A stretch of 64,000 bases of DNA, from positions 122,412 through 186,411 of the forward strand of contig JAPPLU010000049.1 of assembly GCA_028874075.1 (NCBI GenBank), in the 5' to 3' direction. The translations under genes were made by a program, and so were the position numbers. This document shows positions 1,228-64,000 of the stretch, in pieces (position 1 is the first letter of the stretch; the number at the start of each line of letters is the position of its first letter). The notes beneath the pieces are model-generated. The model saw only the letters and a list, made by a program, of their open reading frames with translations. It was not told the origin of the DNA and ran no database searches. This stretch comes from Chloroflexota bacterium (GTDB lineage: Bacteria; Chloroflexota; Dehalococcoidia; Lucifugimonadales; UBA3495).

Positions 1228-2250
1228 CTAACTGACAAACATGGCGTACCCGGCGACGTTCACAGAGCCGTCCCTCCCCTCCATGGGCGCCCACAGATTC
1301 AGCCTGTACACCCCCGGGCCACTCTCACGCCTCACGCTGCCGATGTCCGCGGCTACGGCAAAGCCTTCGGCCGACACATCCCACCGGCTGCACGTTAACA
1401 ATGGGTAGTCTACCTGAACCCGGCGAGGCCGCTCGTTCCTGTGGTAGGCCTCCTGCACGAGAGCCTGAACTTCAACCGGATTGGACGGCACGGGCGAATT
1501 GGACGGAAAGTCCTCGGGTGCAGTGTGCCTTTCCACGGTTAAGCTGGTCCAGTCTTCCAGCCAGTACTGCCCCGCCGGTGGGGGACGCCGAAGGCTGGCG
1601 ATGATGGCGCCGTAATCGTAGGCGTTCACCCTCAGCAGTTGTCCCACAGTGGCAGGTTTGGGCAACGGATCGTACCAGAGATCTGCCGACAGGTCTGCCT
1701 CGCTCTGTATCCTCACCCCGTTCTTCACCCTTCCGGCAAAGGCAAGGACGTGGTTGGCGACGGCTGGCAGACTGTCGAATTCGACGTAGTCTCCTTCCAA
1801 TTCCACCACCAGCATAAAATTGTGCTTGTTCCAAGCTATGCCAATGTTGGCCTTGCGGTACAAGGAGTCGAGAACCATACGGCGATTCCCCATGGTCTCG
1901 AAGATCCAGGTCACTCCATCCTCTATCATCAACTCCAGGTCGGTAATGCCCTCGGGTTCGGGCTTGCCCCACATGAAGGCGGTACTAGCCTGGTACCCTC
2001 CGGCCAGGCTATACCTCATATAGGGCTTCAGGCCCTCCGGGTCCCATTGCGAAACCATACCGATGGCCAGGCACTTGTCGGCGTGCCGCTGCGCCGCAGG
2101 AATGCGTCCCATTTCCACGAAGGGGGCATTCCCCTCCTTTCTGAAGTAGTTGACCAGTTCCAGGGCCCGGTCATAATACTCCGGCCTCACCGGCAGGGGA
2201 GGCACACTGGGCCCGAACGGCGAGTAATACCTGCGCTGTTGGGATGTCAT
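1228..2250 (-). CDS. Hypothetical protein; N-terminal half weakly CAP/SCP (PR-1, YkwD)-like, C-terminal half unassigned
   Basis: 340-aa ORF. ATG 2250 has AGGAG upstream and lies only 22 nt after the stop of the protease gene. The layout ELVNyfR...aaqrHA...NIGIAW resembles CAP domains. No signal peptide seen. Confidence 0.6.
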   Translation of the reverse strand: MTSQQRRYYSPFGPSVPPLPVRPEYYDRALELVNYFRKEGNAPFVEMGRIPAAQRHADKCLAIGMVSQWDPEGLKPYMRYSLAGGYQASTAFMWGKPEPEGITDLELMIEDGVTWIFETMGNRRMVLDSLYRKANIGIAWNKHNFMLVVELEGDYVEFDSLPAVANHVLAFAGRVKNGVRIQSEADLSADLWYDPLPKPATVGQLLRVNAYDYGAIIASLRRPPPAGQYWLEDWTSLTVERHTAPEDFPSNSPVPSNPVEVQALVQEAYHRNERPRRVQVDYPLLTCSRWDVSAEGFAVAADIGSVRRESGPGVYRLNLWAPMEGRDGSVNVAGYAMFVS

Positions 2251-2272: not shown

Positions 2273-3895
2273 CTACTTTACCCGCCTGGCGCTTAGCAGA
2301 ATCATGTCGCGAAGCTGCTCGTTAGTCAGGCCGAACTCGTTCTGCTCGTGCCGCAGATCGTCGCAAACATCGATGCGGAGGAGGAACGCGGAGTTCCTGG
2401 TGCTGTAGTGAACATAGGCGCCCTTGCGGGTCATCCAGCCAATCAGGCAGCGATCATTTTCGTACTTGTACTGGACTGCGCTGCTGCTGGCGGTGGGCCA
2501 GCCCCGCAGGAAGGGTGCGTCCCGCACTGCCACCACCTTCCTGGCGTTGCCGTCGGTAATGCTGTGGGCCACCCAGTTCTGGGATATCAGGTCCGCGGTT
2601 AGCAGGCTGGAGAAGTTCTGCGTCTTGTAATCGATAAGAATGGCCCCGTCTTTGCTTTGCAGCCTGTAGCCTGGCGGGCCACCCCAGAAGTTGCCGGGTA
2701 TGTCGAAGGAAAACTCAATATCCCCCCTGGAGAAGTTGTGGGCCAGCCATGGCACGGGCGTGGGCGGAGGTATTGGCGTGGCCGTAGGCGTGGGAGTTGG
2801 CAGCGGTGTGGCTGTGGGCGTCGGTAGTGGAGTACTCGTCGGTTCAGGTGCAGGAGTCAGGGTTGGATCGGGGTTAGCGGTCGGCTCCGACGTGGCCGTA
2901 GGCGTCGGGGCCACCGTTGGAGTCGGGGTGGGATCCGGAGTCGAGGTTGGGGTTGGGGTTGACGTTGGCTCCGGGACGATGGTCGGCAGCGCCGCCAGCT
3001 GGCCGGATGCTGGCGGGACGCAGTTTACCATCCGGTTCGGCAACGGGTAAGGGACTTCGTTGACGGGAATGGCCAGACCCACGCCCTCAATGGCGACACC
3101 CCCGGCCTGGCGCAATACCTGGGTGTTGATACCCACGACGCAGCCCAGAGCGTTTACCAATGGACCGCCGCTATTGCCCGGATTCAGGGGCGTATCCGTC
3201 TGAAGGTAGCCGTTGACCCTGCCCGATAGAAGCCCGCCGGTAATGGTCGGTTCCAGCCCAAGAATTTCCGCCAGGGGATATCCAATTGCATAGGCCGCTT
3301 CGCCCAGCCGCACCTGGTCGGAGTCGCCAACTGCCAGGGCCGTCAGAGGAGGGGCATCGACCACTTCCAGGTATGCCAGGTCAATCCGGCTGTCCCGGTC
3401 CAGGACATTGGCGCGATACCGGTCGCCGCCGGTCAGATCGACCCACACCTGGTTGTAATTCCCCACCACATGGGCGTTGGTGATGACGAACCCCTGGTTG
3501 TCCGCCACGAATCCAGACCCCGTAGCGGAAGGGGTGGTGACCAGCACAACCCCCCGGCTGACGGCGCTGTAAATATCCGATGGTTGAGGCAGGGCAGTGC
3601 CGCCGGCAACGGGAGCCGCAAGGGCGGGAGTGGGTTCCGGCAGCACGGGAGCCGCCGGCGCGGGGTTATTGCTCACCTGCGAAGCTGGAACCAGGGGCTG
3701 GGCGCCGCTGCCCGAGTCGGAAGAAAAAGCGAAGAGAAACAGGAGGTAGCCTCCGATCGCCAACACTGCTCCCACACCCCAGAAACGCTTCTGGCCAACC
3801 ATGTTAATGAGGTTTCTCTGCCGGACCCGTTCCTTACAATAGGCACAAAAGAGCCACCAGTCAGGAATTAGTTCATTGCAGTTGGGACATTTCAT
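2273..3895 (-). CDS. Membrane-anchored trypsin-like (S1C/HtrA-type) serine protease with N-terminal zinc ribbon, Pro/Thr linker and unassigned C-terminal domain
   Basis: Zinc ribbon [22 protein letters not shown] segment [19 protein letters not shown]. Protease motifs ITNAHVV (His), RIDLAYLEV (Asp) and GNSGGPLV (Ser). About 80 aa of PTPTPT-type linker. The last ~150 aa have no motif I recognise. Start set at ATG 3895; the track ORF begins at a TTG at 3994. Confidence 0.8.
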
Positions 3896-4091
3896 AGGCA
3901 AGACGCCTGACCTTCGTGAGATTGTCCGGAACAGCGACGTACTCGCGTTACCAGCATGGAAATGGGTCAAGGACAGCTTCTTGTCCCACGGCAAAGAAAC
4001 CGGAGAAAGCTATCGACGGGCAACGTCCATCTATCTATGGCTTACGGATTAATACGCCCAATAATCCCCCTTTAAGCTGGCTCGCATTTCC

Positions 4092-5525
4092 CTATGGCGG
4101 ACCACATCGCGGACAACACTGGAAGTTATCAGGAATTTCTGTCCCGCAACTTCGACAGGGTGAGGTTTTCTGGGAGAGATAGGCCAGGCAATTCGGATTT
4201 TGGCACACAATCTTTGTGTCCTGGTTATCCATCCCGCATTGCGGGCAACTGACCAGCCGCACGATGGGCTGGGCTTGCCGGTTACGAGTTGCCTCCGGGG
4301 TCTGCTGCCGGTTCTGCCGGTTGCGTGGACCCATCGGAGTTTGCTGGCGAGATTGCGTGTGGTGCGGTGCGGACGGATTCTGCTGTTGTTGCGCAGCCTG
4401 ATTCGAGCTGGAATTTCCAGTGTTGTTGCCCGCGCCGGAGATGGTAGTGCTGTAGTTAACCGTGGCCTGCTGGCCCAGGTTATTTCCTCCCTTGCTTGCC
4501 AGGTGATGGCCCAGGTTCAGAACCTCGGCGGCGGAGTAACTTCTGCCACCGGCAAAGGTGTGTCCGAAGTAATTCATCCAATTGGGGGAGAGCTGTTCCC
4601 ACCGTTCTTTAGACCTGGCGGGGGTTGACAGGGTAGGGTGGTGGAAGGGGAATTCACGATTGGCAATCCTCTCCTTGTATGTCTGGGAGCCGCCGATATT
4701 ATCCAGGGGGTGAACACCGTTCATCAAGAGCTTGAACAGGATAACAGCAATGGCAAAATTGTCGTCTTCAGCTAAACGGTCAAAACAGAGAAACTCCTTC
4801 TTGTGCCGCCCCCTGGGTTTCCCCGATGGACACCGGTCCTGGTTGCAGTCATCTGCAGTGAGACCAATAACACGGGGACTGAGAAAGTCCGGCTTGCCCA
4901 CGGGACTGCGGTGAACGGTCCGGTTCTTCTTGTCCTGTACCTGGAATGAATCGGAGTCCACGAAGGCCACCCGACCCTCGTAATTGACGAGAATGTTGCT
5001 TTCGTTAACGTCGCCAATTACGTAACCCAGCCTGTGGATATTGCCGAGTATGGTCAGGATGTTGCGGACTACTACGTTGAGCAGGGTCTCCAGGTCTTCC
5101 CCATCCGTGGGAACTCTCAGGTCCTGCCGCGCCAGTGTGGCGTTCAGTTCCCTTCTTTTGGCGGGGTTGTAATAGTTCAAGATATCTTTGTAGAGGCCCA
5201 TGTCGATTTTCGGCATGGTGAAGCCTGCCATCAGCCCGTCAAAGGGCCCACCGTAGTACCAGAGGATTTCTTCAGGCCACGCCAGGGCCACATTGTTGTC
5301 CGCATCTCTCGTAGGAGGCGCGTTTTCGATCATGGCGGCAAGCTTCTGTTCCTTCCGTTTCCACAGCGCCGTTGGCGTGGGTCCAGTGGGTATATCCTTG
5401 GTGTATATCTTGGCTACCAAATCCGGTTGGTCGTTGACCGCATAAACGACGGCTTCCCCGCCAGAACCCAGGGGACTGTCGGGGGTCTGAATGATCCGCT
5501 TACTGCTGGTACGGCAGGTTGGCAT
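4092..5525 (-). CDS. Ser/Thr protein-kinase-like protein with Q/N-rich spacer and C-terminal double zinc ribbon
   Basis: GSGGEAVVY (Gly loop), VAKIY (Lys), HRLGYVIGDVNESNILV (catalytic loop) and FVDSDSF (DFG equivalent). C-terminal CPQCG..CQNPNC..CRSCG..CPRCG. ATG at 5525, 13 nt after the PP2C stop. Confidence 0.8.
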   Translation of the reverse strand: MPTCRTSSKRIIQTPDSPLGSGGEAVVYAVNDQPDLVAKIYTKDIPTGPTPTALWKRKEQKLAAMIENAPPTRDADNNVALAWPEEILWYYGGPFDGLMAGFTMPKIDMGLYKDILNYYNPAKRRELNATLARQDLRVPTDGEDLETLLNVVVRNILTILGNIHRLGYVIGDVNESNILVNYEGRVAFVDSDSFQVQDKKNRTVHRSPVGKPDFLSPRVIGLTADDCNQDRCPSGKPRGRHKKEFLCFDRLAEDDNFAIAVILFKLLMNGVHPLDNIGGSQTYKERIANREFPFHHPTLSTPARSKERWEQLSPNWMNYFGHTFAGGRSYSAAEVLNLGHHLASKGGNNLGQQATVNYSTTISGAGNNTGNSSSNQAAQQQQNPSAPHHTQSRQQTPMGPRNRQNRQQTPEATRNRQAQPIVRLVSCPQCGMDNQDTKIVCQNPNCLAYLSQKTSPCRSCGTEIPDNFQCCPRCGPP

Positions 5526-5538
5526 CAATTGCCCCCGT

Positions 5539-6303
5539 TTACCTTCTGATGGTCAATAGCAAAGTGATGTCGTCGTCGCTCTTGGACGTAACCCGAGACG
5601 AGCTGAGCAGCCCGGATAGTTCGGCCTCCACCCGTAGCGGGTCCGATTGACCCTCCAGCCACTGGAAGACGTTATTGAAGAAACCAAAAAAGGGCTGTTG
5701 GGTAGCGCGCTCAATCACCAGGTTCTCCAAACCGTCGGAGAACATAGCCAGGTATCTCGGCTGAGCCTCAACCACCTTCACCTCCATCTGTTCCAACCAT
5801 TCCCTCGAGGTAATAAAGGTGGTCTGGTTGACGTACTCGCCGTGCTGGGGCGCGGTGAGGCAATCGAATCCTCCCCGATCGTTGGAAATGACCATACCGC
5901 CATCTCCCACCTGGGCGGCCCCCAGGAGGGTATCCGTCTGGATGGACAGCAGCAGGGTATTGGCGTAGGACCGCAGAGGCTCGCCAGACTGGCGGGACAA
6001 TTCCTCCAGGGACTGCCGGACGCCGTAGGCCGATTCCCTGAGGACTTTTTCCAGATCGGCAGCTGTTGGGGGCTTAGCCAGGTCCAGCATGCGCCAGGCG
6101 GCAGCGCTGGTGGCCCGGGTGGTAGTTACCGTGGCGCCCAGGGCCGCGTTTCGGGCCGAACCGGCGCCGTCGGACACTACCGCAATGGCGAAGTCTGCCT
6201 CTACCCGGTGAAACGCCCGATCCTGCCGCTCGACGCCCCGCCGCAGGTGACGGGCACCGGCCACGGAAGCGCTGTAAGCCCATATTCCACTGCGATTGAC
6301 CAC
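5539..6303 (-). CDS. PP2C-family protein phosphatase
   Basis: Metal-binding Asp motifs VVSDGAGS and MFSDGL. GTG at 6303 shares its G with the vWA stop codon (TAGTG) and has GAGG upstream. An alternative GTG at 6393 would overlap the vWA gene by 91 nt. Confidence 0.75.
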   Translation of the reverse strand: MVNRSGIWAYSASVAGARHLRRGVERQDRAFHRVEADFAIAVVSDGAGSARNAALGATVTTTRATSAAAWRMLDLAKPPTAADLEKVLRESAYGVRQSLEELSRQSGEPLRSYANTLLLSIQTDTLLGAAQVGDGGMVISNDRGGFDCLTAPQHGEYVNQTTFITSREWLEQMEVKVVEAQPRYLAMFSDGLENLVIERATQQPFFGFFNNVFQWLEGQSDPLRVEAELSGLLSSSRVTSKSDDDITLLLTIRR

Positions 6304-7013
6304 TAGACCTCGGCCCAGCCTGCGGGGCTGGACAAGGATACGGCGTCGCTGGGTTGCGACTGAGAAACCGAAGACATGGAGGCGGACAGCCACTGGAACA
6401 TTTCCCTAAAGTTCAGCCCCTGCAACTTCAGGGCTTGCCGGCTGCCTATGCTGTCCAGTTCAGTTAAGTCAGCACCTTCGACGCCGACGGTGAAGAAGGC
6501 AAGCTGCCGGTCGTTCTCGGCCTGCTTGACGCGGGCCTTGGCATTTTCCCAATCGGTGGCTGTGTCATGCTCCGGGTAGCCGTCGCAGATCAACCAAACC
6601 CAGGGCCGGTAGTAAGTGATGCCGTTGTCCCGATACGTTTGCTTCCTTTGTTCAACCAAGTCCAGGGCCATTTCAATTGCACCGGAAATCCTCGTTCCGC
6701 CGCTCACCTCCAGCATGGGCGGGTCGAAGCGGTCCACGGTGGTAAAGTCGTGGATCACCGATGCCTCGTGGTTAAAGGCTATAACTCCTATTTCCGTACG
6801 CAGCGATGCCAGGGTGTCATCTTCGATGCAGGACTTGAAGAACTTCAGGCCGTCGTTCAGTTGCCGGATGGGTATCTCCCCATTTCTTTCGAAACCCATG
6901 GAATTCGACACATCCAGCACCAGAAGGCAGGCGCAGCGAGGTTCCGGGTTATCCGCGAAGATCACCGAGTCTTCCAAGCTGGGAGACTGCGAAAGGTCGT
7001 TCTGTCCTACCAT
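6303..7013 (-). CDS. von Willebrand factor A (vWA) domain protein, TerY-like
   Basis: MIDAS motif LDVSNSM (DxSxS) after NPEPRCACLLV; also GGTRISGAIEMA and WLICDGYP. ATG 7013 is preceded by GGAGGA. Confidence 0.8.
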   Translation of the reverse strand: MVGQNDLSQSPSLEDSVIFADNPEPRCACLLVLDVSNSMGFERNGEIPIRQLNDGLKFFKSCIEDDTLASLRTEIGVIAFNHEASVIHDFTTVDRFDPPMLEVSGGTRISGAIEMALDLVEQRKQTYRDNGITYYRPWVWLICDGYPEHDTATDWENAKARVKQAENDRQLAFFTVGVEGADLTELDSIGSRQALKLQGLNFREMFQWLSASMSSVSQSQPSDAVSLSSPAGWAEV

Positions 7014-7178: not shown

Positions 7179-7709
7179 CTATGGCCCGGAACGCTTCGGC
7201 CACCCGGATGGCCAGTACTTCAGGTAAAGGCCGAACAGCAGCAGGCCCAGATGAATTGCCACCAGGTGCAGCAGCCCTATCTGGGGTATGGGCACTCCGA
7301 ACAGGGCATTGGGCGGGCTGTCCATCATCGGATGGGACGCCACCCGCAGCGCCAGCAAGGGCAGGACAACTATTGCCAGGTGTGTCTTAACTGGGTTCCG
7401 CCCCCGCATTATCGCCAGAAATGCGGTGAAAGACAGCAGAATCGTCAGGGCCGGCGCAATTACAAACAGGAAAGCCCCCAGGGGATTCGCCTGGAACCAG
7501 GCCGCCAGGGAGTCGTTGAACAAGCTGTAGCCCAGCAACCGGCTTCCCGTCATAGAGCCCGTGGGCCCCACCGGCATCCAGGGCAGCAGGATAAATACCA
7601 GGGCCAAACCGGCCAGCGCAGACCTGACCTGGTCAACCCTGCTCTGGTTGGGCAGTGGACTATTAAAGGCTTCCAGCAAACTGGAGCCGATGCTCTTCAT
7701 CCGCTGCAC
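7179..7709 (-). CDS. Integral membrane protein (about 4 TM helices), unknown function
   Basis: 176-aa ORF with several hydrophobic stretches (LAGLALVFILLPW, AFLFVIAPALTILLSFTAFLAI, LAIVVLPLLAL, LLHLVAIHLGLLLFGLYL). GTG 7709 lies 8 nt after AGGAG and 11 nt after the upstream stop. Confidence 0.6.
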   Translation of the reverse strand: MQRMKSIGSSLLEAFNSPLPNQSRVDQVRSALAGLALVFILLPWMPVGPTGSMTGSRLLGYSLFNDSLAAWFQANPLGAFLFVIAPALTILLSFTAFLAIMRGRNPVKTHLAIVVLPLLALRVASHPMMDSPPNALFGVPIPQIGLLHLVAIHLGLLLFGLYLKYWPSGWPKRSGP

Positions 7710-7720
7710 GGTTGCCGCTC

Positions 7721-8629
7721 CTACTGATTGTGAACGACTCCGGGGTTAAAGCTCTGCTGCAGTTGTTCCGACCTGGCCCGGAAGAGCGCCAGGTCGTTGT
7801 GAAGCTGGGAAACGGCATGGGGTATGGTCTGAAACTCCTGGTGCAGGGCCAGGAAGTTGGCCGACAGCCGTATCTTGGTAATCTCCAGGTTCAGCTGCCT
7901 CAGCTCCGCCATGATTAAGTTGGACTGGCTAAGAATGCTGTTGGCCTGCAGTTGCCACTGGCGGTAAAGCTCCTGTTCCTGCCGGTCACGGTTTTGGAAC
8001 AGCGCTTTGCGCTCGGGATTGGTCATCAGGCTGGTCAGATGAGCCTGCCGCTCAAAATACTCGGCGGCGGTTACGTTCGCCCGGTCAACCCGCCACTGAA
8101 ACCGCTTGTGAGCGTCCAAAGCCAGGTTGTACCTGGCAGACCATTCGTCGTAAAACTGCTCCACTGCCATGGTGTATTCGGTCTGCTGAATCCCCAGGTC
8201 CTCCACCATTTCGTCCGCAAAGTCAGCGGCATCGGCGGCGGCCAGGTCCGATGGACTGTTATATTCCGGGTACCGGTCGGGCGTGGGTTCCGGCTCCGCG
8301 CCGACCACAGGGGGCTCGCCGCCCGAAGCGTCGCCCTGAGGGCCTTGCCCGGTACCCGGACCAGACGGGGATCCGGGCACGTCGTTCGCCGTTCCGGGGG
8401 CGCCGCCTGGCAACTTCATACTGATGTTCCGGCCCGGCGGGACCGGGGGCAGTACGTTGGCAAAGGAACTGTCAAGCCTGCCGGCGGTGCGGTTGGTGCG
8501 CGTCACCTCTTCGGTCAACTTTGTGGCGGGACGCTCATTGGGGTCCTGCGACAGGTGGCCGATGGTCTGCACGATAATCACGCCGGCCACAATTGCGGCA
8601 ATGGCGATAAGGCCCATCTTGATCAGCAT
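7721..8629 (-). CDS. Single-pass membrane protein: N-terminal TM, Pro/Gly-rich segment, C-terminal helical/coiled-coil domain
   Basis: TM MGLIAIAAIVAGVIIVQTI. Low-complexity PGGAPGTANDVPGSPSGPGTGQGPQG. The C-terminal ~170 aa are rich in heptad-like Q/L/R/E. ATG 8629 is preceded by GGAGG. Confidence 0.65.
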   Translation of the reverse strand: MLIKMGLIAIAAIVAGVIIVQTIGHLSQDPNERPATKLTEEVTRTNRTAGRLDSSFANVLPPVPPGRNISMKLPGGAPGTANDVPGSPSGPGTGQGPQGDASGGEPPVVGAEPEPTPDRYPEYNSPSDLAAADAADFADEMVEDLGIQQTEYTMAVEQFYDEWSARYNLALDAHKRFQWRVDRANVTAAEYFERQAHLTSLMTNPERKALFQNRDRQEQELYRQWQLQANSILSQSNLIMAELRQLNLEITKIRLSANFLALHQEFQTIPHAVSQLHNDLALFRARSEQLQQSFNPGVVHNQ

Positions 8630-8692
8630 AGTAACCTCCCCGGGCCTCGGGCAGATTCTGGCACCCTGATCTCCCGTGATATTACTACATCA

Positions 8693-8721
8693 TACATAGG
8701 CACGCCATGCTATGTTGTCAA
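8693..8721 (-). promoter_or_regulatory. Sigma70-like promoter for the two membrane-protein genes
   Basis: Minus strand: TTGACA (8721-8716), 17-nt spacer, TATGTA (8698-8693). Confidence 0.5.
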
Positions 8722-9048
8722 CCAGCGACAGCCCGATTCACTCTAACCCGCAACAATTTCTTTTGCGAGCCAGGCTGTAGTTCGTAACGGCTTAGCCCGA
8801 GTGGGGACTTGGGAACAGTCGCGGCTTCAGGGGAGTAGGAGTTGACGGCAGGCGCAATAGGGTGTCAGGGGGAAGTGGATGGCCTGCATGACAGGGGATC
8901 AATAGAAGAGCAGCAGTTGCACAAGTGACGTTACGGCAGGAAAGACCATTGAGGCAACAACGGTAAAAGTCAATCGGCCGCCAGTTAGTGGAGAATTGGC
9001 GTGGGAGGCGGCTGACTTAGATGATGTGGGCGCCCGCCATTCGCGACT

Positions 9049-10827
9049 CTATTGGGGAAAGAAGGTAATTGCCATGCTGGCTCGTATCATTTCCTCATCG
9101 GCGCTGGAGACGATGACCAGAGACCCGAGGCTTGACTCCAGCGCCTCAAAGTCCTCTTCCGTCATATCCATATCTTCGGCATCCAACTCCGCTACGATAC
9201 GCTGCAGGTCCAACCAGAAAAGTAACTGATGCTCTCCGGCCAGGGCCTCCACCGCTCGCTGGTATTCGGCAACCGAAGACAATGCATGCTCATCACCGTT
9301 CTGAGCTCCCACCACATTCTCCAGAGCCTCTTCCGTGGTGCCAAATACGAGGTATCCGTTGTGAAGAACGTATCCGGGAGTGTAATCCGTCTCGATTCCA
9401 AAGAAGTCCGGTCTGAAAATCTCCGCGTCGTTGTCGGCGCCCACATCCTCAGAGTCAATATCAATGGGGACTTCCTCGTGAAGGAAGTCGGAAAAGTCTT
9501 CCAGGCTATCCTCTAACCTTGATTCGGATTCCGGGAGGTAAGACAACATTGCCACGACATTGAGTGTCTCCTCCAAAGGGTCTTCCTCAATGCGGCCAGC
9601 ATCGAACTCTTCCACTGACATGACGAACTCTCCACCGAGGTATTCGATGAAGTCTTTCTCCAAGTCTACATCGGTGTAGGCCTCTACCAATTCAAGAAAT
9701 ATATCAAGCACATCGGCCATGTCAGGGTTTTCCCTAAATCGAGGAGGATTGTCGCTCTGCCACTCTACTTCCCGGTATAGCTCCACATAGATATCTTCAA
9801 CGTAGTAGGAGATTTCGTCACTGGATCCGTAATCTTCCAGTTGTTCCCTCCAGTTGTCCAGGTCCGTGTCGAATGATGCAGCTAGCAACCCCACCGTTTC
9901 AGCAGGTACCAGTTCCGCTGGGTTGTCCAGAACCTGAAGGTCGCTGGTAATGTTTATGGTGTTGGGTGCCAGGAATTCCACCACAATGCCCCTGTCAATC
10001 CACTGGGTCGTAACTGCGGCCCAGTCTGGAAAGTCAGAGGAATCGGATATCGCAGCAAAATCGTACGCTTCTTCTGAAATCAGGTCTGCATCATCAAGCA
10101 GGTCTAACAATTCCTCAATGTTCAGGAAGACTGAGGCGAAACGTCGGTCGGAATATTGTTGCCTGGCAGCCTGAAATTGTTCATCATCTGCAAGGGACCG
10201 CTCCGAACGGCCAGTGATCAAGTCCAGCATATCTTCCAGCGTTTCTTCGGGGTCGTCCGCAAACACGACCAGCAACACTTCCCTCGTTAGCGCGAACGCC
10301 AATCTCTCTCGTTCGTCAGTCCATATATCAATCCCGTCATCATCATCGTAGTCAAAGTCGAAGCCCGACTCGTCCTCAAGGTAGTCTGTCCATTCCTCTA
10401 TGAAGATCTGGGCCCTTTCGAAGTCGCGGACAGACACTGTCACTACGCCAACGGGCTTATCATTCTCTTCCAACAGACCGGCCGAGGCGTCGACGCCTAT
10501 CCATGTCTCCAGTTCTTCCTCGAAATCGAAGCCGGACTCGTCCTCAACATCGTCCTGCAGGTCCTCCAATCTTTCTTCCAGCTCTGGTAATTCATTAATC
10601 CTTTCAAACAGATCCATCATCTGGTCAAACTGACCGTCTTCGGGGTACAGGGTAAGCCACGCATAAGAAATAGTGTCTCGAGGGTAGTAACTGGCTGAAT
10701 GTTCGGGAGGGTCGAGGAAGAGACCAATGAAGGGATTAGGGCCAATGCCAAAATAGATCAGGGCGGCGAAGGCAACAATCAGGACGCCAACGGCGGCCAA
10801 AATAACGCCAGTTATTTTGAGAACCAT
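9049..10827 (-). CDS. Membrane-anchored, extremely acidic protein of unknown function (size and architecture possibly DUF3352-like)
   Basis: 592-aa ORF. N-terminal TM ITGVILAAVGVLIVAFAALIYFGI. The remainder is dominated by Asp/Glu runs (EDLQDDVEDESGFDFEEELE, FDFDYDDDDGIDIW). ATG 10827. Confidence 0.7.
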   Translation of the reverse strand: MVLKITGVILAAVGVLIVAFAALIYFGIGPNPFIGLFLDPPEHSASYYPRDTISYAWLTLYPEDGQFDQMMDLFERINELPELEERLEDLQDDVEDESGFDFEEELETWIGVDASAGLLEENDKPVGVVTVSVRDFERAQIFIEEWTDYLEDESGFDFDYDDDDGIDIWTDERERLAFALTREVLLVVFADDPEETLEDMLDLITGRSERSLADDEQFQAARQQYSDRRFASVFLNIEELLDLLDDADLISEEAYDFAAISDSSDFPDWAAVTTQWIDRGIVVEFLAPNTINITSDLQVLDNPAELVPAETVGLLAASFDTDLDNWREQLEDYGSSDEISYYVEDIYVELYREVEWQSDNPPRFRENPDMADVLDIFLELVEAYTDVDLEKDFIEYLGGEFVMSVEEFDAGRIEEDPLEETLNVVAMLSYLPESESRLEDSLEDFSDFLHEEVPIDIDSEDVGADNDAEIFRPDFFGIETDYTPGYVLHNGYLVFGTTEEALENVVGAQNGDEHALSSVAEYQRAVEALAGEHQLLFWLDLQRIVAELDAEDMDMTEEDFEALESSLGSLVIVSSADEEMIRASMAITFFPQ

Positions 10828-59050: not shown

Positions 59051-62000
59051 TTAATCCAGCCCCGAGATGGTCAGTGTGAAACTTCCCGCCGTCCCCGGAC
59101 TGTAGGTCGTCGCCTCTATGGTGTAGGTCCCTGCGTCCAGGGTCTCACTTATCCGCGAGTTCAGGTTGACGCCGCCGCTTTCTATGTCGTCGTTTTCGTG
59201 TTCTGCGTCCCCGCTACGGGCTTCCCCTTGTCTCAGGTATAGGTAGGGGTCAACGCTGGATACAAGCTCGATCGTTATTTGGGAAGCCTCTTCCAGCGTA
59301 AAGGTGTAGTAACGGGCATACCCACGGCCCGACACCTGCGACTGGCAACCCGCCACCCAACTGCCACCGACAGAACCATCAGCGCTAATGGTGGACCCGC
59401 ACTGGTCGGTTTCCGTTCCACTGCTGTCGTCCGTGCCGCCTCCCAGGCCAGAAATAGTCAGGGTAAAGGCACCAGTGCTGCCAGCAGCATAGGTCGTCGC
59501 TTCGATGGTGTAGGTCCCTGCGTCCAGGGTCTCGCTTATCCGCGAGTTCAGGTTCACGCCACCGCTGGCGATGTCGTCATTTTCGTGCAGGGCATCGCCC
59601 GCTCGGGCGTCGCCGGGCCGCAGGTACAGGTAGGTGTCCACGTCGGAGGTCAGCTCCATGGTTACCGCCGATTCCTCGGCCAGGGTGAAGGTGTAGTAGC
59701 GGGCGTAGCCCCGGTCGGGGACTGATGATTCGCAACCCGGGGCCCACGTGCCGGTGGTGGCGCCGTCCGTAGTGATGGCGGTGGCGGCGCAGTTGTCCGT
59801 TTCTTCATCTCCGGGCTCTGTTTCCATTTCATCCTCGCCATCGCCGTCCAAGCCGGTGAAGGTGAGGGTGAAGGTTCCGGATTGGTCTCCACCGTAGGTT
59901 GTGGCTTCGATGGTGTAGGTACCGGCGGCCAGGGTCTCGCTGATCCGCGAGTTCAGGTTCACGCCACCGCTGGCGATGTCGTCATTTTCGTGCAGGGCAT
60001 CGCCCGCTCGGGCGTCGCCGGGCCGCAGGTACAGGTAGGTGTCCACGTCGGAGGTCAGCTCCATGGTTACCGCCGATTCCTCGGCCAGGGTGAAGGTGTA
60101 GTAGCGGGCGTAGCCCCGGTCGGGGACTGATGATTCGCAACCCGGGGCCCACGTGCCGGTGGTGGCGCCGTCCGTAGTGATGGCGGTGGCGGCGCAGTTG
60201 TCCGTTTCTTCATCTCCGGGCTCTGTTTCCATTTCATCCTCGCCATCGCCGTCCAAGCCGGTGAAGGTGAGGGTGAAGGTTCCGGATTGGTCTCCACCGT
60301 AGGTTGTGGCTTCGATGGTGTAGGTACCGGCGGCCAGGGTCTCGCTGATTCGGGAGTTGGTATCCGTCCCGGGCGCCACGTCGTCATTGAAGGCCACCGC
60401 GACTCCGGTCCGGGCCGTTCCGCTCCGCAAGTAAAGGAACGGGTCTACGTCGGACACCAGGTCAATGGTCACCGCAGACTGCTGGTCCAGGGTGAAGGTG
60501 TAGTAGCGGGCGTAGCCCCGGTCGAGGACTGATGATTCGCAACCCGGGGCCCAGGTTCCGGTGGTGGCGCCATCAGTGGTGAGGGTGAAGCCGCAGCCGT
60601 CCGGCGTAGTTTCCTCCTCTCCAGCGCCGCCGCCAAGGCCGGAGATGGTCAAGGTGAATTCGCCCGATTGGCCGGTATCGTAGGTGGTGGCTTCGATGGT
60701 GTAGGCACCTGCCGTAAGGGTAGCCGTTATCCGAGAGTTGGTGTTTGCCCCGGCCTCTATGTCGTCGTTCTCGTGGAGAAAGTCTTCCGATCGGGAGTCT
60801 CCGGCTCTCAGGAAGAGGTAGGGGTCCACGCTGGAGTTAAGCTCGATGGTTACCTGGGTGGTCTCCTCCAGGGTGAAGTTGTAGTACTGGGAGTAGCCGC
60901 GGTCAGCGGCGGTCGACTGGCACGACGGCGACCACGAGCCGGTGGTGGCGCCATCGTTGGTGAGCTCGTGGACGCAGTCGCCTACGTCGGTGGCGGGAAG
61001 CTTGGCGAGGCCGTAGCCCCAGGTATTGTTGGGGACGGCGCCCCTGGGTTCGGCGTTGTCCTTGAGGTAGGCGGCGGTTTCCTCAGCCGTCAAGTCGGGG
61101 AAGCGCTGGCGGACCAGGGCGGCCATGCCGGCCACGTGAGGGGAGGCCTGGCTGGTACCGGGGAACCAGCAGCCCTGACCGTTGTCGCGCCGGGTGCGGT
61201 ACTCGTAGCTGACGGATGCGGCGCAATCGATCCCTACGATGTCGGGCTTGATGCGACCGTCGGGGGTGGGGCCCTGGCTGCTGAAGGGCTCAATGGTATT
61301 GACGTCGTAGAAGGGCGATGCTCCCACTGCCAGCAGGCCGGGGTTGGCGCTTTCGGCCGGGTTGGCGATGCTGCCATTGCCGGTATGGATCCCAAGTCCG
61401 CCACGACCCGAGAACATCTCCAATTGGATCCAGTTGGGGACGGGCCCACCGGCGTGAACTATGATGACGCCAACATCGTTGCTGTCAATTGGTGACCGAA
61501 GAGAGAAGAATTCAAAGGGCTCATGGTCGCTTGCTCCCGACTGCGGCACTCTGCTTCCAATGAATCCCCATCCCGCTGGGATGCTCAAGAGGGCGTCGGT
61601 GCTTCTGTCCCACAGGTACATGTCCAGGTCCGTGCTGGCGCCGCCCCAACTGTCTTCCCAGCGCAGCTGGAAGGTATAGCGCTGGCACTCCAAGAGGGTA
61701 ATGGGGTTTATTTCGACGCCGGAACTGTTGAAGCTCATTATGCCATCGCCGTCGTGGTCAGAGAGACTTCCGAACCAGGTGTCTTCCGCAGAGTTTCCTG
61801 CTGCGTTCACCCAAATGATGCCGTCATCGACAGCCTGGTCAATTGTGTTCAAGGGACTGCTGCTGTAGGGAGAGGTTCCGTCTCCGCGACTGCCGTAGTG
61901 GGTCCAGCCCACGGAGTAGTTGATGACCTGTACTCCCTGGGAGGCCATCCACGCAGCGGTTGCCTGCAGGTCTCCCCATGACCCGGGCTGGGAGATGTAG

Positions 62001-62767
62001 AGGATGGCATCGGGGGCGATGTCAATGACCGCTTCGGCGACGGCCGTGCCGTGGACGCTGCCAGAGTTACCACGAGAGCATTGGTTGAAGTCCGGCAGCG
62101 GCTCTGAGGCCTCGCAGTCGGCGAGGTTGGAGGTGTAGACGCCCACGTCGGTGTAGCACCGGGCGACGACGGTAGAGGGGAGTTCGACGCCCATGAGGCC
62201 GGAGTAGCCGGTGAAGCCCACGTCGATTACGCCGACCTTGACGCCCTGGCCCTGGTAGCCGGCGTCCTGCCAGGAGTCGGCCAGGTGGAGGGCTACGGCC
62301 TGGCTGGTTACGTTGCCGTAGGCCGGCTGGGGCGGGATGATCTCCTGGACCTGGGTTACGCCGGGCTGCAGGGAGAGGGGGCCAAGGAGGGACACGGGCA
62401 CGTAGGCCTCGACGTAGTCGCTACCCACGTTGCGGGGGTCGCCGCCGTTGTCTTCCAGGTAGGTGACCACGTCGGAGACATGGCCATCCAGGTAGATGGT
62501 GACGGCGACGGAGCCGCCGGAGTGGACGGGGGCCTGGCCCGCGGCCTGGCCCTGGGACATCCGGCCGGAGCCGTAACCTTCGGCCAGGTGGTTGAGGTGG
62601 GCGCTGAGGTTGGGGTAGGCGTAGCTGGGCTTGGGGGGGACTGCCGGGTCGTCGCCGCCCTGGGCGAAGGCGCTGGGGATGAAGAGGGACAGGGTTACCA
62701 GGAGGGCGACGGCCACCAGGACGGCGGCGGCCAGGGCGAGTTTAGCAGGGGGGTCCAAGTGTGCCAT
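59051..62767 (-). CDS. Secreted subtilisin-like (S8) serine protease with five C-terminal PPC-like (pre-peptidase C-terminal) domains
   Basis: Signal peptide ...LSLFIPSAFA-QG. Catalytic motifs VGVIDVGF (Asp), HGTAVAEAV (His) and PGTSQASPHVAGMAALV (Ser). Five repeats of ~115-135 aa with C..DG...G.W...C.S...RGYARYYTFTL....YLYLR.G....END....NSRI..L.AGTYTIEATTY. Start at ATG 62767, or GTG 62788. Confidence 0.85.
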   Translation of the reverse strand: MAHLDPPAKLALAAAVLVAVALLVTLSLFIPSAFAQGGDDPAVPPKPSYAYPNLSAHLNHLAEGYGSGRMSQGQAAGQAPVHSGGSVAVTIYLDGHVSDVVTYLEDNGGDPRNVGSDYVEAYVPVSLLGPLSLQPGVTQVQEIIPPQPAYGNVTSQAVALHLADSWQDAGYQGQGVKVGVIDVGFTGYSGLMGVELPSTVVARCYTDVGVYTSNLADCEASEPLPDFNQCSRGNSGSVHGTAVAEAVIDIAPDAILYISQPGSWGDLQATAAWMASQGVQVINYSVGWTHYGSRGDGTSPYSSSPLNTIDQAVDDGIIWVNAAGNSAEDTWFGSLSDHDGDGIMSFNSSGVEINPITLLECQRYTFQLRWEDSWGGASTDLDMYLWDRSTDALLSIPAGWGFIGSRVPQSGASDHEPFEFFSLRSPIDSNDVGVIIVHAGGPVPNWIQLEMFSGRGGLGIHTGNGSIANPAESANPGLLAVGASPFYDVNTIEPFSSQGPTPDGRIKPDIVGIDCAASVSYEYRTRRDNGQGCWFPGTSQASPHVAGMAALVRQRFPDLTAEETAAYLKDNAEPRGAVPNNTWGYGLAKLPATDVGDCVHELTNDGATTGSWSPSCQSTAADRGYSQYYNFTLEETTQVTIELNSSVDPYLFLRAGDSRSEDFLHENDDIEAGANTNSRITATLTAGAYTIEATTYDTGQSGEFTLTISGLGGGAGEEETTPDGCGFTLTTDGATTGTWAPGCESSVLDRGYARYYTFTLDQQSAVTIDLVSDVDPFLYLRSGTARTGVAVAFNDDVAPGTDTNSRISETLAAGTYTIEATTYGGDQSGTFTLTFTGLDGDGEDEMETEPGDEETDNCAATAITTDGATTGTWAPGCESSVPDRGYARYYTFTLAEESAVTMELTSDVDTYLYLRPGDARAGDALHENDDIASGGVNLNSRISETLAAGTYTIEATTYGGDQSGTFTLTFTGLDGDGEDEMETEPGDEETDNCAATAITTDGATTGTWAPGCESSVPDRGYARYYTFTLAEESAVTMELTSDVDTYLYLRPGDARAGDALHENDDIASGGVNLNSRISETLDAGTYTIEATTYAAGSTGAFTLTISGLGGGTDDSSGTETDQCGSTISADGSVGGSWVAGCQSQVSGRGYARYYTFTLEEASQITIELVSSVDPYLYLRQGEARSGDAEHENDDIESGGVNLNSRISETLDAGTYTIEATTYSPGTAGSFTLTISGLD
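59538..60349 (-). repeat. Perfect tandem duplication (2 x 405 nt) inside the S8 protease gene
   Basis: 59538-59944 is identical to 59943-60349 wherever I compared the lines. Off-frame track ORFs ending at 59725 and 60130 have identical C-terminal translations. Confidence 0.85.
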
Positions 62768-62951
62768 CTTTGCCACACCACACCTCACAACTTCAGAGAT
62801 GGCGCCCCTGGCGGCCGGGCCCGGAGGCGTCGGGCTGCAAGGGCAAAGCTATAGTAGCAGGTGGGAGATGGGTTGCGCATCAATATGACGGGCGGGTTTG
62901 GGGGAATTGGGGCGGGGGTGTGACCGCGGAGGCGCGGCGGTTTGCAGAGGT

Positions 62952-63089: not shown

Positions 63090-63224
<135 letters not shown>

Positions 63225-63287: not shown

Positions 63288-64000
63288 TTAGCGGCGGGGC
63301 ATTACGAAGGGCATGGCGATGGCGATCACCGCGGCCACGATGGCGATGATGATGGCGATGATGCCAGTGGTGCCGGAGGCGTCGGCGCCGGCTGCGCCAG
63401 CGGGGCCGGCAGGACCCTGGGGGCCCTGGGGGCCAGCGGCGCCGGCTGCGCCGTCAGCGCCAGCGGGACCGGCAGCGCCGGGGTCGCCCTGGGGGCCTAC
63501 GGGGCCACGGGCGCCGTCAGCGCCAGCGGGACCGGCAGGGCCATCGGCGCCGGCAGGTCCAGCGGGACCCTGGGAGCCAGCGCCAGCAGCGCCACGGGGA
63601 CCGGCGGGGCCAGCAGGACCGGCGGGGCCAGCAGGACCGGCAGGACCGGCGGGGCCCGGAGGGCCGATGCGGCCCACGGTGCCGGAGGCCTGGGCGCTGA
63701 GGTTGAAGCCGGGCTGGATTTTGCCTATTTCATAGTTGTTGAGCTTTTCCATGGCATCCACACCGGCGACCATGAAGCTGATGGGGCCGGAGCCGGAGGG
63801 CTGCATTACCTGGAGAGAGAACTTGCCGCCAGCCATGGTCATGGCGGAGCCGAGCTTCTGGCTGCCCTGCATGGCGACGATATCGGTGTCAATGGGCGGC
63901 GTTGCGCCGTTGAGCATGGCCGTGCCGAGCAGGACGTGGGGCGGGCTCTGCTGCGCGAATGCCGTGAGAGGCAGCGCAGAAAGCATGGCCACTATCGCAA
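63288..64000 (-). CDS. Collagen-like (G-X-Y repeat) protein with C-terminal TM anchor; 5' end runs off the window
   Basis: ...[12 protein letters not shown] signal-like N-terminus (reading frame still open at 64000). A ~110-aa globular part. About 100 aa of [20 protein letters not shown] triplets. C-terminal [21 protein letters not shown] followed by PRR. Confidence 0.75.

Follow-up and report, generated by a model that had tools for sequence, protein, structure and literature searches.

In PMC10542128 and PMC11090510, which take up the work of Anantharaman, Iyer & Aravind (2012), the TerY-P triad is defined by three members, a vWA protein of the TerY type, a phosphatase of the PP2C class, and a Ser/Thr kinase carrying a Zn ribbon at its C-terminus, and is predicted to act as a phosphorylation-dependent switch. 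Triads of this type are widespread and are found in stress-resistance and anti-phage contexts (PMC10542128, PMC11090510), and TerY-P-like modules have been reported to form stand-alone antiphage systems or to occur alongside systems of the restriction type (Gao 2020, Anantharaman 2012, both cited via PMC11090510). Neither the triggers of these triads nor the association of a triad with a membrane protease and the C-terminal domain (CTD) considered here is described in the available parts of PMC10542128 and PMC11090510.

The window analyzed in this study is a stretch of 64,000 nucleotides from an uncultured Chloroflexota bacterium of the class Dehalococcoidia (assembly GCA_028874075.1, contig JAPPLU010000049.1, positions 122,412 to 186,411). 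It contains all three members of the TerY-P definition, i.e., a vWA gene, a PP2C_2 gene, and a kinase gene ending in DZR, and the target gene follows them directly (Table 1). Based on this conserved triad context, on kinase fusions in relatives, and on the loss of the protease domain in orthologs that keep the ribbon, TM helix, linker, and CTD, the target protein is proposed to span the membrane and to serve the adjacent TerY-P-type triad of vWA, PP2C, and kinase as a receptor-like partner, with a PsbP-like binding head and an accessory protease, at a probability of about 0.5.

Table 1. The target gene, its parts, and its operon neighbors in the window
Feature	Coordinates	Strand	Remarks
Whole target ORF	2273..3895	minus	540 aa + stop; Zn ribbon, TM, S1C protease, PT linker, CTD; orthologs with the same architecture
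N-terminal Zn ribbon, predicted cytoplasmic	3824..3895	minus	residues 1-24; CxxC...CxxC at C3, C6, C17, C20
Single TM helix	3722..3784	minus	residues 38-58; Kyte-Doolittle 19-residue mean 2.0; sole hydrophobic segment
S1C (HtrA-like) protease domain, predicted extracytoplasmic	3008..3580	minus	residues 106-296; H142/D172/S242; conserved Cys252/Cys292 pair
Pro/Thr-rich (PT) linker	2759..2998	minus	residues ~300-379
CTD	2276..2758	minus	residues 380-540, 161 aa; conserved Cys483/Cys511 and an 11-residue motif
Ser/Thr-kinase-like protein	4092..5528	minus	upstream gene; Q/N-rich tail, C-terminal double Zn ribbon (DZR); TerY-P-type kinase
PP2C phosphatase	5539..6393	minus	PP2C_2, E 6.8e-41
vWA (TerY-like) protein	6303..7013	minus	DxSxS MIDAS motif (LVLDVSNSM) in sequence
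176-aa hydrophobic protein, predicted membrane	7179..7709	minus	travels with the operon
302-aa protein	7721..8629	minus	N-terminal hydrophobic helix, P/G-rich spacer, long heptad-like helical C-terminal region; travels with the operon
CAP/SCP-like protein, 340 aa	1228..2250	minus	22 bp downstream of the target; conserved neighbor

Domain layout and topology of the target protein

The target ORF starts at an ATG at position 3895 and ends with a stop codon at 2273–2275. A longer form starting from a TTG at 3994 is unlikely because the orthologs share the start at M-x-C-P. The ORF recurs in P0004 (99% identity), in P0005 (100%; an NCBI Chloroflexota MAG), and at more than 10 orthologous loci, and its presence in these independent assemblies indicates that it is not an assembly artifact. 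P0134 is likewise 100% identical to the window kinase. The annotation of P0005 is merely “trypsin-like peptidase domain-containing protein.”

An earlier reading of the same DNA, made from the sequence alone (the sequence-only reading), had claimed a cytoplasmic CxxC...CxxC ribbon and one TM helix, and both were recovered. The Zn ribbon is kept in the complete orthologous ORFs of the target. The topology check returned one segment with an N-in/C-out orientation, which follows from the net charges of its flanks, +5 before the helix and −1 after it. These positive-inside flanks and the conserved Cys pairs of the S1C domain and the CTD agree with one another, and together they fit an extracytoplasmic position of the protease and the CTD. 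A juxtamembrane YPSQVPP motif is present in most orthologs and is missing from the window copy.

The trypsin-fold domain with its His, Asp, and Ser motifs, which had also been claimed, is matched by Pfam Trypsin_2 at residues 126–256 (E 1.3e-29) and aligns with DegP/DegQ/HtrA1 chains (E ~1e-27), with His142 (TNAHVV), Asp172 (RIDLAY), and Ser242 (GNSGGP) in register with the catalytic positions of DegP/DegQ. The match to the NCBIfam HtrA/DegP/DegQ/DegS models is limited to residues ~123–291 and reaches 80–151 bits against cut-offs of 408–800. The S1C domain is under purifying selection, with a dN/dS of 0.10–0.20. Pfam detects no PDZ domain in the target, and the ~80-aa Pro/Thr linker that was said to take its place is borne out by the composition of residues 300–388, in which 30 of the 89 residues are Pro and 25 are Thr. 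This linker shows a dN/dS of 0.12–0.21. It gives rise to truncated gene calls and to spurious antisense Gly/Val-rich ORFs such as 2691..3050 on the plus strand of the window; the practical lesson is that gene callers split PT-linker genes and add such ORFs.

The architecture as a whole had been described as unusual for HtrA-type proteases, which stands when it is compared with textbook HtrA but not when it is compared with the nearest relatives of the protease. The best 120 protease-domain matches were clustered by their tails, and nearly all of them run from the S1C domain through a PT linker to a small non-PDZ tail, so the absence of PDZ is common to the protease relatives and not peculiar to the target; the exact CTD, on the other hand, is very rare. 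At least four tail types occur among the best 120, namely three ~140-aa tail families (family A with 40 clusters, family B with 32, and the present CTD family with 21) and RCC1 repeats (14), in addition to several small groups. One representative of each of families A and B gave no Pfam match. Homology of the CTD with family A was rejected, with hhalign showing no relation, and the similarity to family B was too weak to be accepted, as it covers only the last ~50 CTD residues (hhalign E 0.003, probability 10%). Judged by these sequences, relatives of the target protease commonly share the plan of S1C domain, PT linker, and small non-PDZ tail, which has gone unannotated. In its Chloroflexota relatives, PDZ would then be replaced by PT-stalked tails of several unrelated kinds, which matters for the annotation of many “trypsin-like peptidase domain-containing proteins” of uncultured bacteria.

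The C-terminal domain and its predicted fold

The final domain, given as ~150 aa and left unrecognized in the sequence-only reading, contains no PDZ domain, peptidoglycan-binding module, or any other Pfam family. The 18 family members searched gave zero Pfam matches at E<=10, the PsbP, Mog1, DcrB, and LpqN families included, and a CTD profile found nothing among the PDB sequences. In an exhaustive search of 1.84 billion representative proteins, the CTD profile returned 13 matches at a threshold of E<=1e-3, and 7 clusters remained at E<=1e-10. A survey of species genomes (one per species) with a 4-sequence alignment located the CTD in 7 of 185,579, all of them Dehalococcoidia MAGs of 3.6–4 Mb. 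P0127–P0131, which are Calx-beta-like and other repeat proteins, were discarded as spurious because they share only a short repeated strand motif of the “DGAILVDYRTQ” type. A word-indexed search with the CTD alone yielded 3 clusters, all truncated gene calls, and the orthologs surfaced with the full-length search. Likewise, the free-standing 142–160-aa proteins under which the CTD is publicly listed (P0001–P0003) are truncated calls due to the PT linker. In comparisons with close orthologs, conservation is highest in the CTD (90–95%), followed by the S1C domain (79–84%) and the ribbon and TM helix (46–57%), and both the S1C domain and the CTD are under purifying selection where they are present (dN/dS 0.10–0.35). 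The CTD is best regarded as a new, small, lineage-restricted family of predicted ectodomains.

An AlphaFold model of the CTD built with 18 diverse members reached a best pLDDT of 84.4 and a pTM of 0.81, with the five models being uneven (84/76/62/41/41); a model built from the 4-sequence alignment was discarded (pLDDT 37). In the best model, three strands precede a first helix, and four further strands precede a second. When the model was compared with the PDB by Foldseek, no strong match was obtained (best E 1e-3, TMq 0.45–0.57, identity ~10%), and the nine best matches comprise plant PsbP, yeast and human Mog1, LpqN of M. tuberculosis, Jonesia 3lyd, and the immunity protein Tsi3. The strand and helix order of PsbP (4rti), Mog1 (1eq6), LpqN (6e5d), 3lyd, and Tsi3 (4luq) agrees with that of the CTD model. 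On the basis of this model, the CTD is predicted to be an alpha-beta sandwich that remotely resembles the PsbP/Mog1/LpqN fold. The earlier remark that no motif was recognized in the CTD therefore holds for sequence matches in Pfam and the PDB and is qualified by this remote structural likeness. To our knowledge, PsbP, Mog1, LpqN, 3lyd, and Tsi3 are non-enzymatic binding modules.

Operon context, architectural variants, and kinase fusions

Membership of the target in the vWA-PP2C-kinase operon, which is absent from the sequence-only reading, is what points to function. The target lies directly after the triad in all loci recovered (the window, L001–L006, and L008–L019), except that in L018 an IS605/TnpB element lies between the two. 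All loci that reach far enough contain vWA, PP2C, and kinase genes, bar L009, in which PP2C was not found. The synteny of target and triad persists down to ~45% target identity in tblastn searches with the window proteins, and the loci include ones reached independently via distant kinase orthologs. In L007, the gene set of the operon is retained in a changed order. The flanking housekeeping genes (DUF3352, gamma-glutamyltranspeptidase, and AhpC) form a stable synteny across species. The kinase-target spacer (85–196 bp) is not conserved, and a promoter/terminator scan stayed at background level.

The window kinase belongs to a divergent family and falls below the Pfam Pkinase cut-off; its remoter relatives are annotated as “protein kinase and helix-hairpin-helix.” The CAP-like gene is found 3' of the target in most recovered loci. 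Orthologs of its 340-aa product match PF00188 CAP (E 1e-7 and 2e-10); for the product encoded in the window, Pfam gives no match, and no signal peptide or export signal is visible in this protein. The 302-aa protein is also encoded in L007, in another gene order.

The operon has a mosaic structure. The window and L010 share 94–97% DNA identity across the operon, with one exception between ~4500 and 2750, a block in which identity drops to 35–80%; a narrower dip is located at the 5' end of the kinase gene. The divergent block comprises the Q-rich tail and Zn ribbons of the kinase, the spacer, and the ribbon, TM helix, S1C domain, and PT linker of the target. Since dS is 0.92 in the S1C domain and 0.20 in the CTD, the block has a separate history, and it likely reflects recombination between alleles and not positive selection. 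The low-complexity linkers are plausible crossover sites. Linkers also flank the recurrent deletions of the protease domain.

When occurrences of the CTD in other architectures were sought, as the sequence-only reading had suggested, the domain was found without the protease, with FN3 in its place, and fused to a protein kinase, which gives four arrangements: (a) that of the window, shared by numerous orthologs with identities as low as ~40%; (b) Zn ribbon-TM-PT-CTD without the protease, in L001/L013, L005, and L011; (c) kinase-TM-S1C-PT-CTD, in P0017 and P0126; and (d) kinase-TM-FN3-PT-CTD in P0064, with TM-FN3-PT-CTD in P0125, the sequence of which is incomplete. The CTD is therefore the constant element, and the membrane-stalk module is variable (S1C, FN3, or nothing). 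In arrangement (b), the S1C domain is deleted in frame, with the ribbon or TM helix, linker, and CTD intact, and the three deletion junctions of L001/L013, L005, and L011 differ, so three independent losses are probable.

In L007, the fused P0017 takes the place of the kinase after vWA-PP2C. The kinase domain of P0017 shares 45% identity (E 7e-92) with the stand-alone kinase of L008, which precedes the unfused ortholog P0015, and by this comparison the two loci constitute a genuine split-versus-fused pair. The fused kinase family shows no BLAST similarity to the window kinase; thus, the fusion evidence applies directly to a sister sub-family of kinases and reaches the window by synteny and position only. 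L011, which had appeared to be a fusion of a kinase of the window type to TM-PT-CTD, is probably degenerate and is not counted as fusion evidence because the N-lobe of its kinase is missing at the contig start.

Zn ribbons are distributed in accordance with the split and fused forms. Each of the 11 stand-alone orthologs of the kinase that were checked terminates in Zn ribbons, as does the L008 kinase when a frameshift in its 5x long-read contig is allowed for, and unfused receptors with complete ORFs start with a Zn ribbon. No CxxC pair at all is present in the fused P0017, P0126, and P0064; P0019 keeps one despite its fusion. This pattern of presence and absence in a handful of clusters suggests that the ribbons may be docking surfaces of the split form.

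Proposed role and comparison with known systems

The proposed role as a receptor-like partner draws on domain composition, topology signals, the intact triad, synteny, kinase fusions, recurrent protease-domain loss, and purifying selection. The target would be a bitopic protein with its small N-terminal Zn ribbon in the cytoplasm and the protease, an ~80-residue stalk, and the 161-residue domain outside. The CTD would serve as the constant head, whose most likely function is to bind a ligand, either a protein or part of the envelope. Occupancy of the head, proteolysis by the S1C domain, or both could be transmitted through the membrane to the soluble kinase, which probably docks onto the Zn ribbon of the receptor via its own C-terminal double Zn ribbon. 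PP2C may then reset the switch, with the vWA protein being a phospho-target or adaptor. The protease would be an accessory extracellular module that processes or trims what the head has captured, or that releases a signal, and not the core of the system. Because both the S1C domain and the CTD are under purifying selection, the protease is not junk and may itself be the real output. The function overall, together with ligand binding, ribbon-ribbon docking, and the direction of signaling, is read here from context. A more specific and decidedly tentative version of the proposal is a split receptor kinase, in which the TerY-P switch obtains extracellular input via a Zn-ribbon-anchored protein with a PsbP-like head and an HtrA-like module that processes the ligand, and in which ribbon-to-ribbon docking is a non-covalent link that becomes dispensable upon fusion.

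A different explanation is that the target is an HtrA-type envelope quality-control or processing protease of monoderm Chloroflexota, with the CTD replacing PDZ for substrate capture or anchoring and with the kinase genes being linked indirectly or merely co-regulated. The intact S1C core and triad, the alignment with DegP/DegQ, and the selection on the domain are as expected for such an enzyme, and the S1C-PT-tail plan of more than 100 related clusters, with its varied tails, suggests interchangeable substrate or anchor modules like PDZ. However, an enzyme of this kind would hardly lose its protease domain three times with the remainder kept, or have FN3 in its place as in P0064 and P0125; strict adjacency to the triad and kinase fusion in relatives also argue against it, and a housekeeping role is not expected of a domain confined to so few species genomes, so that this explanation is considered unlikely. 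The joining of a protease gene and a small CTD gene through low-complexity sequence by annotation or assembly, with the CTD translated from a GTG (Val381) before PWLAHNF, is very improbable. The public listing of separate CTD proteins would agree with such an artifact, the Val381 codon could act as a start, and a frame break separates protease and linker in L006. Nevertheless, the reading frame runs uninterrupted across the PT linker both in the window and in over 12 independent assemblies, the “separate” CTD calls are truncated and have spurious antisense GV-rich ORFs placed on the linker, and the linker itself is under constraint; the L006 break lies in a 7x long-read contig, whereas the near-identical L016 is intact.

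Still less likely than a quality-control protease is an effector arm of a TerY-P-type conflict or defense system, in which a signal such as phage infection or metal stress would pass through the kinase switch to a membrane protease that damages the envelope proteins of its own cell or the proteins of an invader. The antiphage and restriction associations of TerY-P-like modules would suit this role, and at the domain level the S1C domain matches the PADLOC protease-fusion model RT-Protease_XI (E 5.5e-16), but the vWA and PP2C proteins have no PADLOC match at E<=0.01 and the kinase only weakly matches PD-T4-6 or MkoA. The divergent block from kinase to linker in an otherwise nearly identical operon resembles the variability of conflict genes; its high dS, by contrast, points to recombination and not to positive selection, and the operon lies in stable chromosomal housekeeping synteny across species and not in a variable island. 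Furthermore, the protease faces outward, away from a cytoplasmic trigger, and is dispensable in three lineages. The probability left after these four readings falls to something not considered here.

With the HtrA/DegP/DegQ/DegS proteases (MEROPS S1C), the target shares the chymotrypsin-fold core, the His-Asp-Ser triad, the predicted extracytoplasmic site, and an N-terminal anchor; DegS is anchored in the membrane at its N-terminus. Members of the HtrA family form trimer-based oligomers with regulated activation loops and have one or two C-terminal PDZ domains. In place of PDZ, the target has a PT stalk and a PsbP-like domain, a Zn ribbon is added on the cytoplasmic side, and in its family the protease is dispensable, unlike in HtrA/DegP. 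LpqN and DcrB are located outside the membrane, as is predicted for the CTD. The PsbP, Mog1, LpqN, and DcrB types are lipoproteins or free subunits, whereas the CTD is attached through a PT stalk to either a protease or a kinase and has no detectable sequence relation to their Pfam families. What makes the target interesting is not so much an “odd HtrA” architecture as its place as a conserved membrane-bound part of a switch built from kinase, phosphatase, and vWA proteins, with a rare ectodomain.

The layout of P0017, P0126, and P0064, with the CTD outermost, is shared with bacterial receptor-type Ser/Thr kinases, in which a kinase, a TM helix, and an extracellular sensor follow one another (e.g., PASTA kinases such as PknB). 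Those receptors are one polypeptide, whereas the window kinase and ectodomain are encoded by separate genes, the ectodomain of the window includes a protease, and its kinase family is divergent; the window version looks like a receptor kinase split into two polypeptides. Elsewhere, the associates of TerY-P triads include Ter genes, restriction systems, and CoCoNuTs, and none of these accompanies the window triad. Its partners are instead the membrane-anchored target, with its extracellular protease and PsbP-like head, the CAP-like protein, and another two membrane proteins. The TerY-P switch has so far been regarded as a cytoplasmic module linked to metals or nucleic acids, and a conserved membrane-spanning operon partner that is fused to kinases in relatives offers a testable input route for it. 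If the split receptor kinase is correct, it would be the first concrete input device of TerY-P triads, with a new ectodomain family.

Divergence between the window and L010

When the window was compared with L010, a related locus in another assembly (OZ219949.1), a block extending from the kinase tail to the Pro/Thr-rich (PT) linker of the target gene was found to share only 35–80% DNA identity, against 94–97% for the remaining operon. Because the dS between the two loci is 0.92 for the HtrA-like protease domain (S1C) and 0.20 for the C-terminal domain (CTD), comparison of the coding sequences suggests that the divergent block originated by allelic recombination.

In the target protein, a motif [RH]-x-[YF]-P-S-Q-[VL]-P-P is located between the Zn ribbon and the TM helix in most orthologs, including the distant P0015 and P0020, and might serve as a docking or phosphorylation site. 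The motif is absent from the window copy (window 3806–3823, residues ~25–30).

Features of the window and of related loci
Feature	Locus	Coordinates	Strand	Remarks
Divergent block	window	~2750–4500		spans kinase tail and Zn ribbons, spacer, receptor (target gene) ribbon, TM, S1C, PT linker
Spurious antisense ORF over PT linker	window	2691–3050	+	
Spurious antisense ORF over PT linker	L001	7730–7978	-	
Spurious antisense ORF over PT linker	L005	5513–6048	-	
Spurious antisense ORF over PT linker	L006	9610–9999	-	
Conserved 340-aa downstream protein	window	1228–2250	-	CAP/SCP-like via orthologs
1245-aa secreted-looking protein	window	59051–62788	-	subtilisin-type Ser motif GTSQASPHVAGMAAL
234-aa ORF	window	63288–63992	-	signal-like N-terminal segment, collagen-like repeat, hydrophobic anchor

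Variant and interrupted loci

In L011 (JAJEDS010000296.1), a single ORF (187–2259) joins a window-type kinase C-lobe directly to TM-PT-CTD and possesses neither Zn ribbon nor the protease. This locus may be degenerate because the kinase N-lobe is absent or interrupted at the start of the 3.4-kb contig. In L018, the kinase and the target gene are separated by an inserted IS605/TnpB-type element (8523–9884; OrfB_IS605, Cas12f1-like_TNB), and the call for the target gene begins downstream of the Zn ribbon. Apparent frameshifts, which are probably sequencing errors, were found in two long-read contigs of low coverage: in L006 (~9570–9630, 7x) the break separates the protease from the linker, and in L008 (~7700–7990, 5x) it lies ahead of the kinase C-terminal Zn ribbons, which are read through in another frame.

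Neighboring genes and the far end of the window

Neither a signal peptide nor a TM segment is visible in the 340-aa downstream protein, of which ~190 C-terminal residues have no assignment; its gene is present in two copies in L007. At the far end, the Ser motif of the 1245-aa protein precedes five repeats of ~125 aa that are nearly identical to one another ('TDGATTGTW...RGYARYYTFTL...TYTIEATTY'). A homopolymer-like G-rich tract of 71 nt (63114–63184, 82% G) is located in this window end, where the GC content is 71% and the GC skew is strong. The collagen-like repeat of the 234-aa ORF is a long G-P-A/G-x-y repeat with the anchor located C-terminally, and a 260-aa collagen-family gene also occurs near the operon in L001.

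The PT linker and tail families

The PT linker causes two kinds of misannotation, namely the shortening of the real gene by gene callers to a 142–160-aa 'stand-alone' CTD (P0001–P0003) and the calling of spurious Gly/Val-rich ORFs on the strand opposite the linker. Among the S1C relatives (P0021–P0123), the tails of ~140 aa that come after the PT linker contain Cys and fall into at least three unrelated families, including family A ('EWEAMVLEW...YRIGD'), family B ('GRPF...DCxYxVV...GxCE') and, as the third, the CTD of the target protein. No Pfam match for the tail was obtained with one scanned representative each of families A and B. Other S1C relatives of this set possess RCC1-repeat tails.
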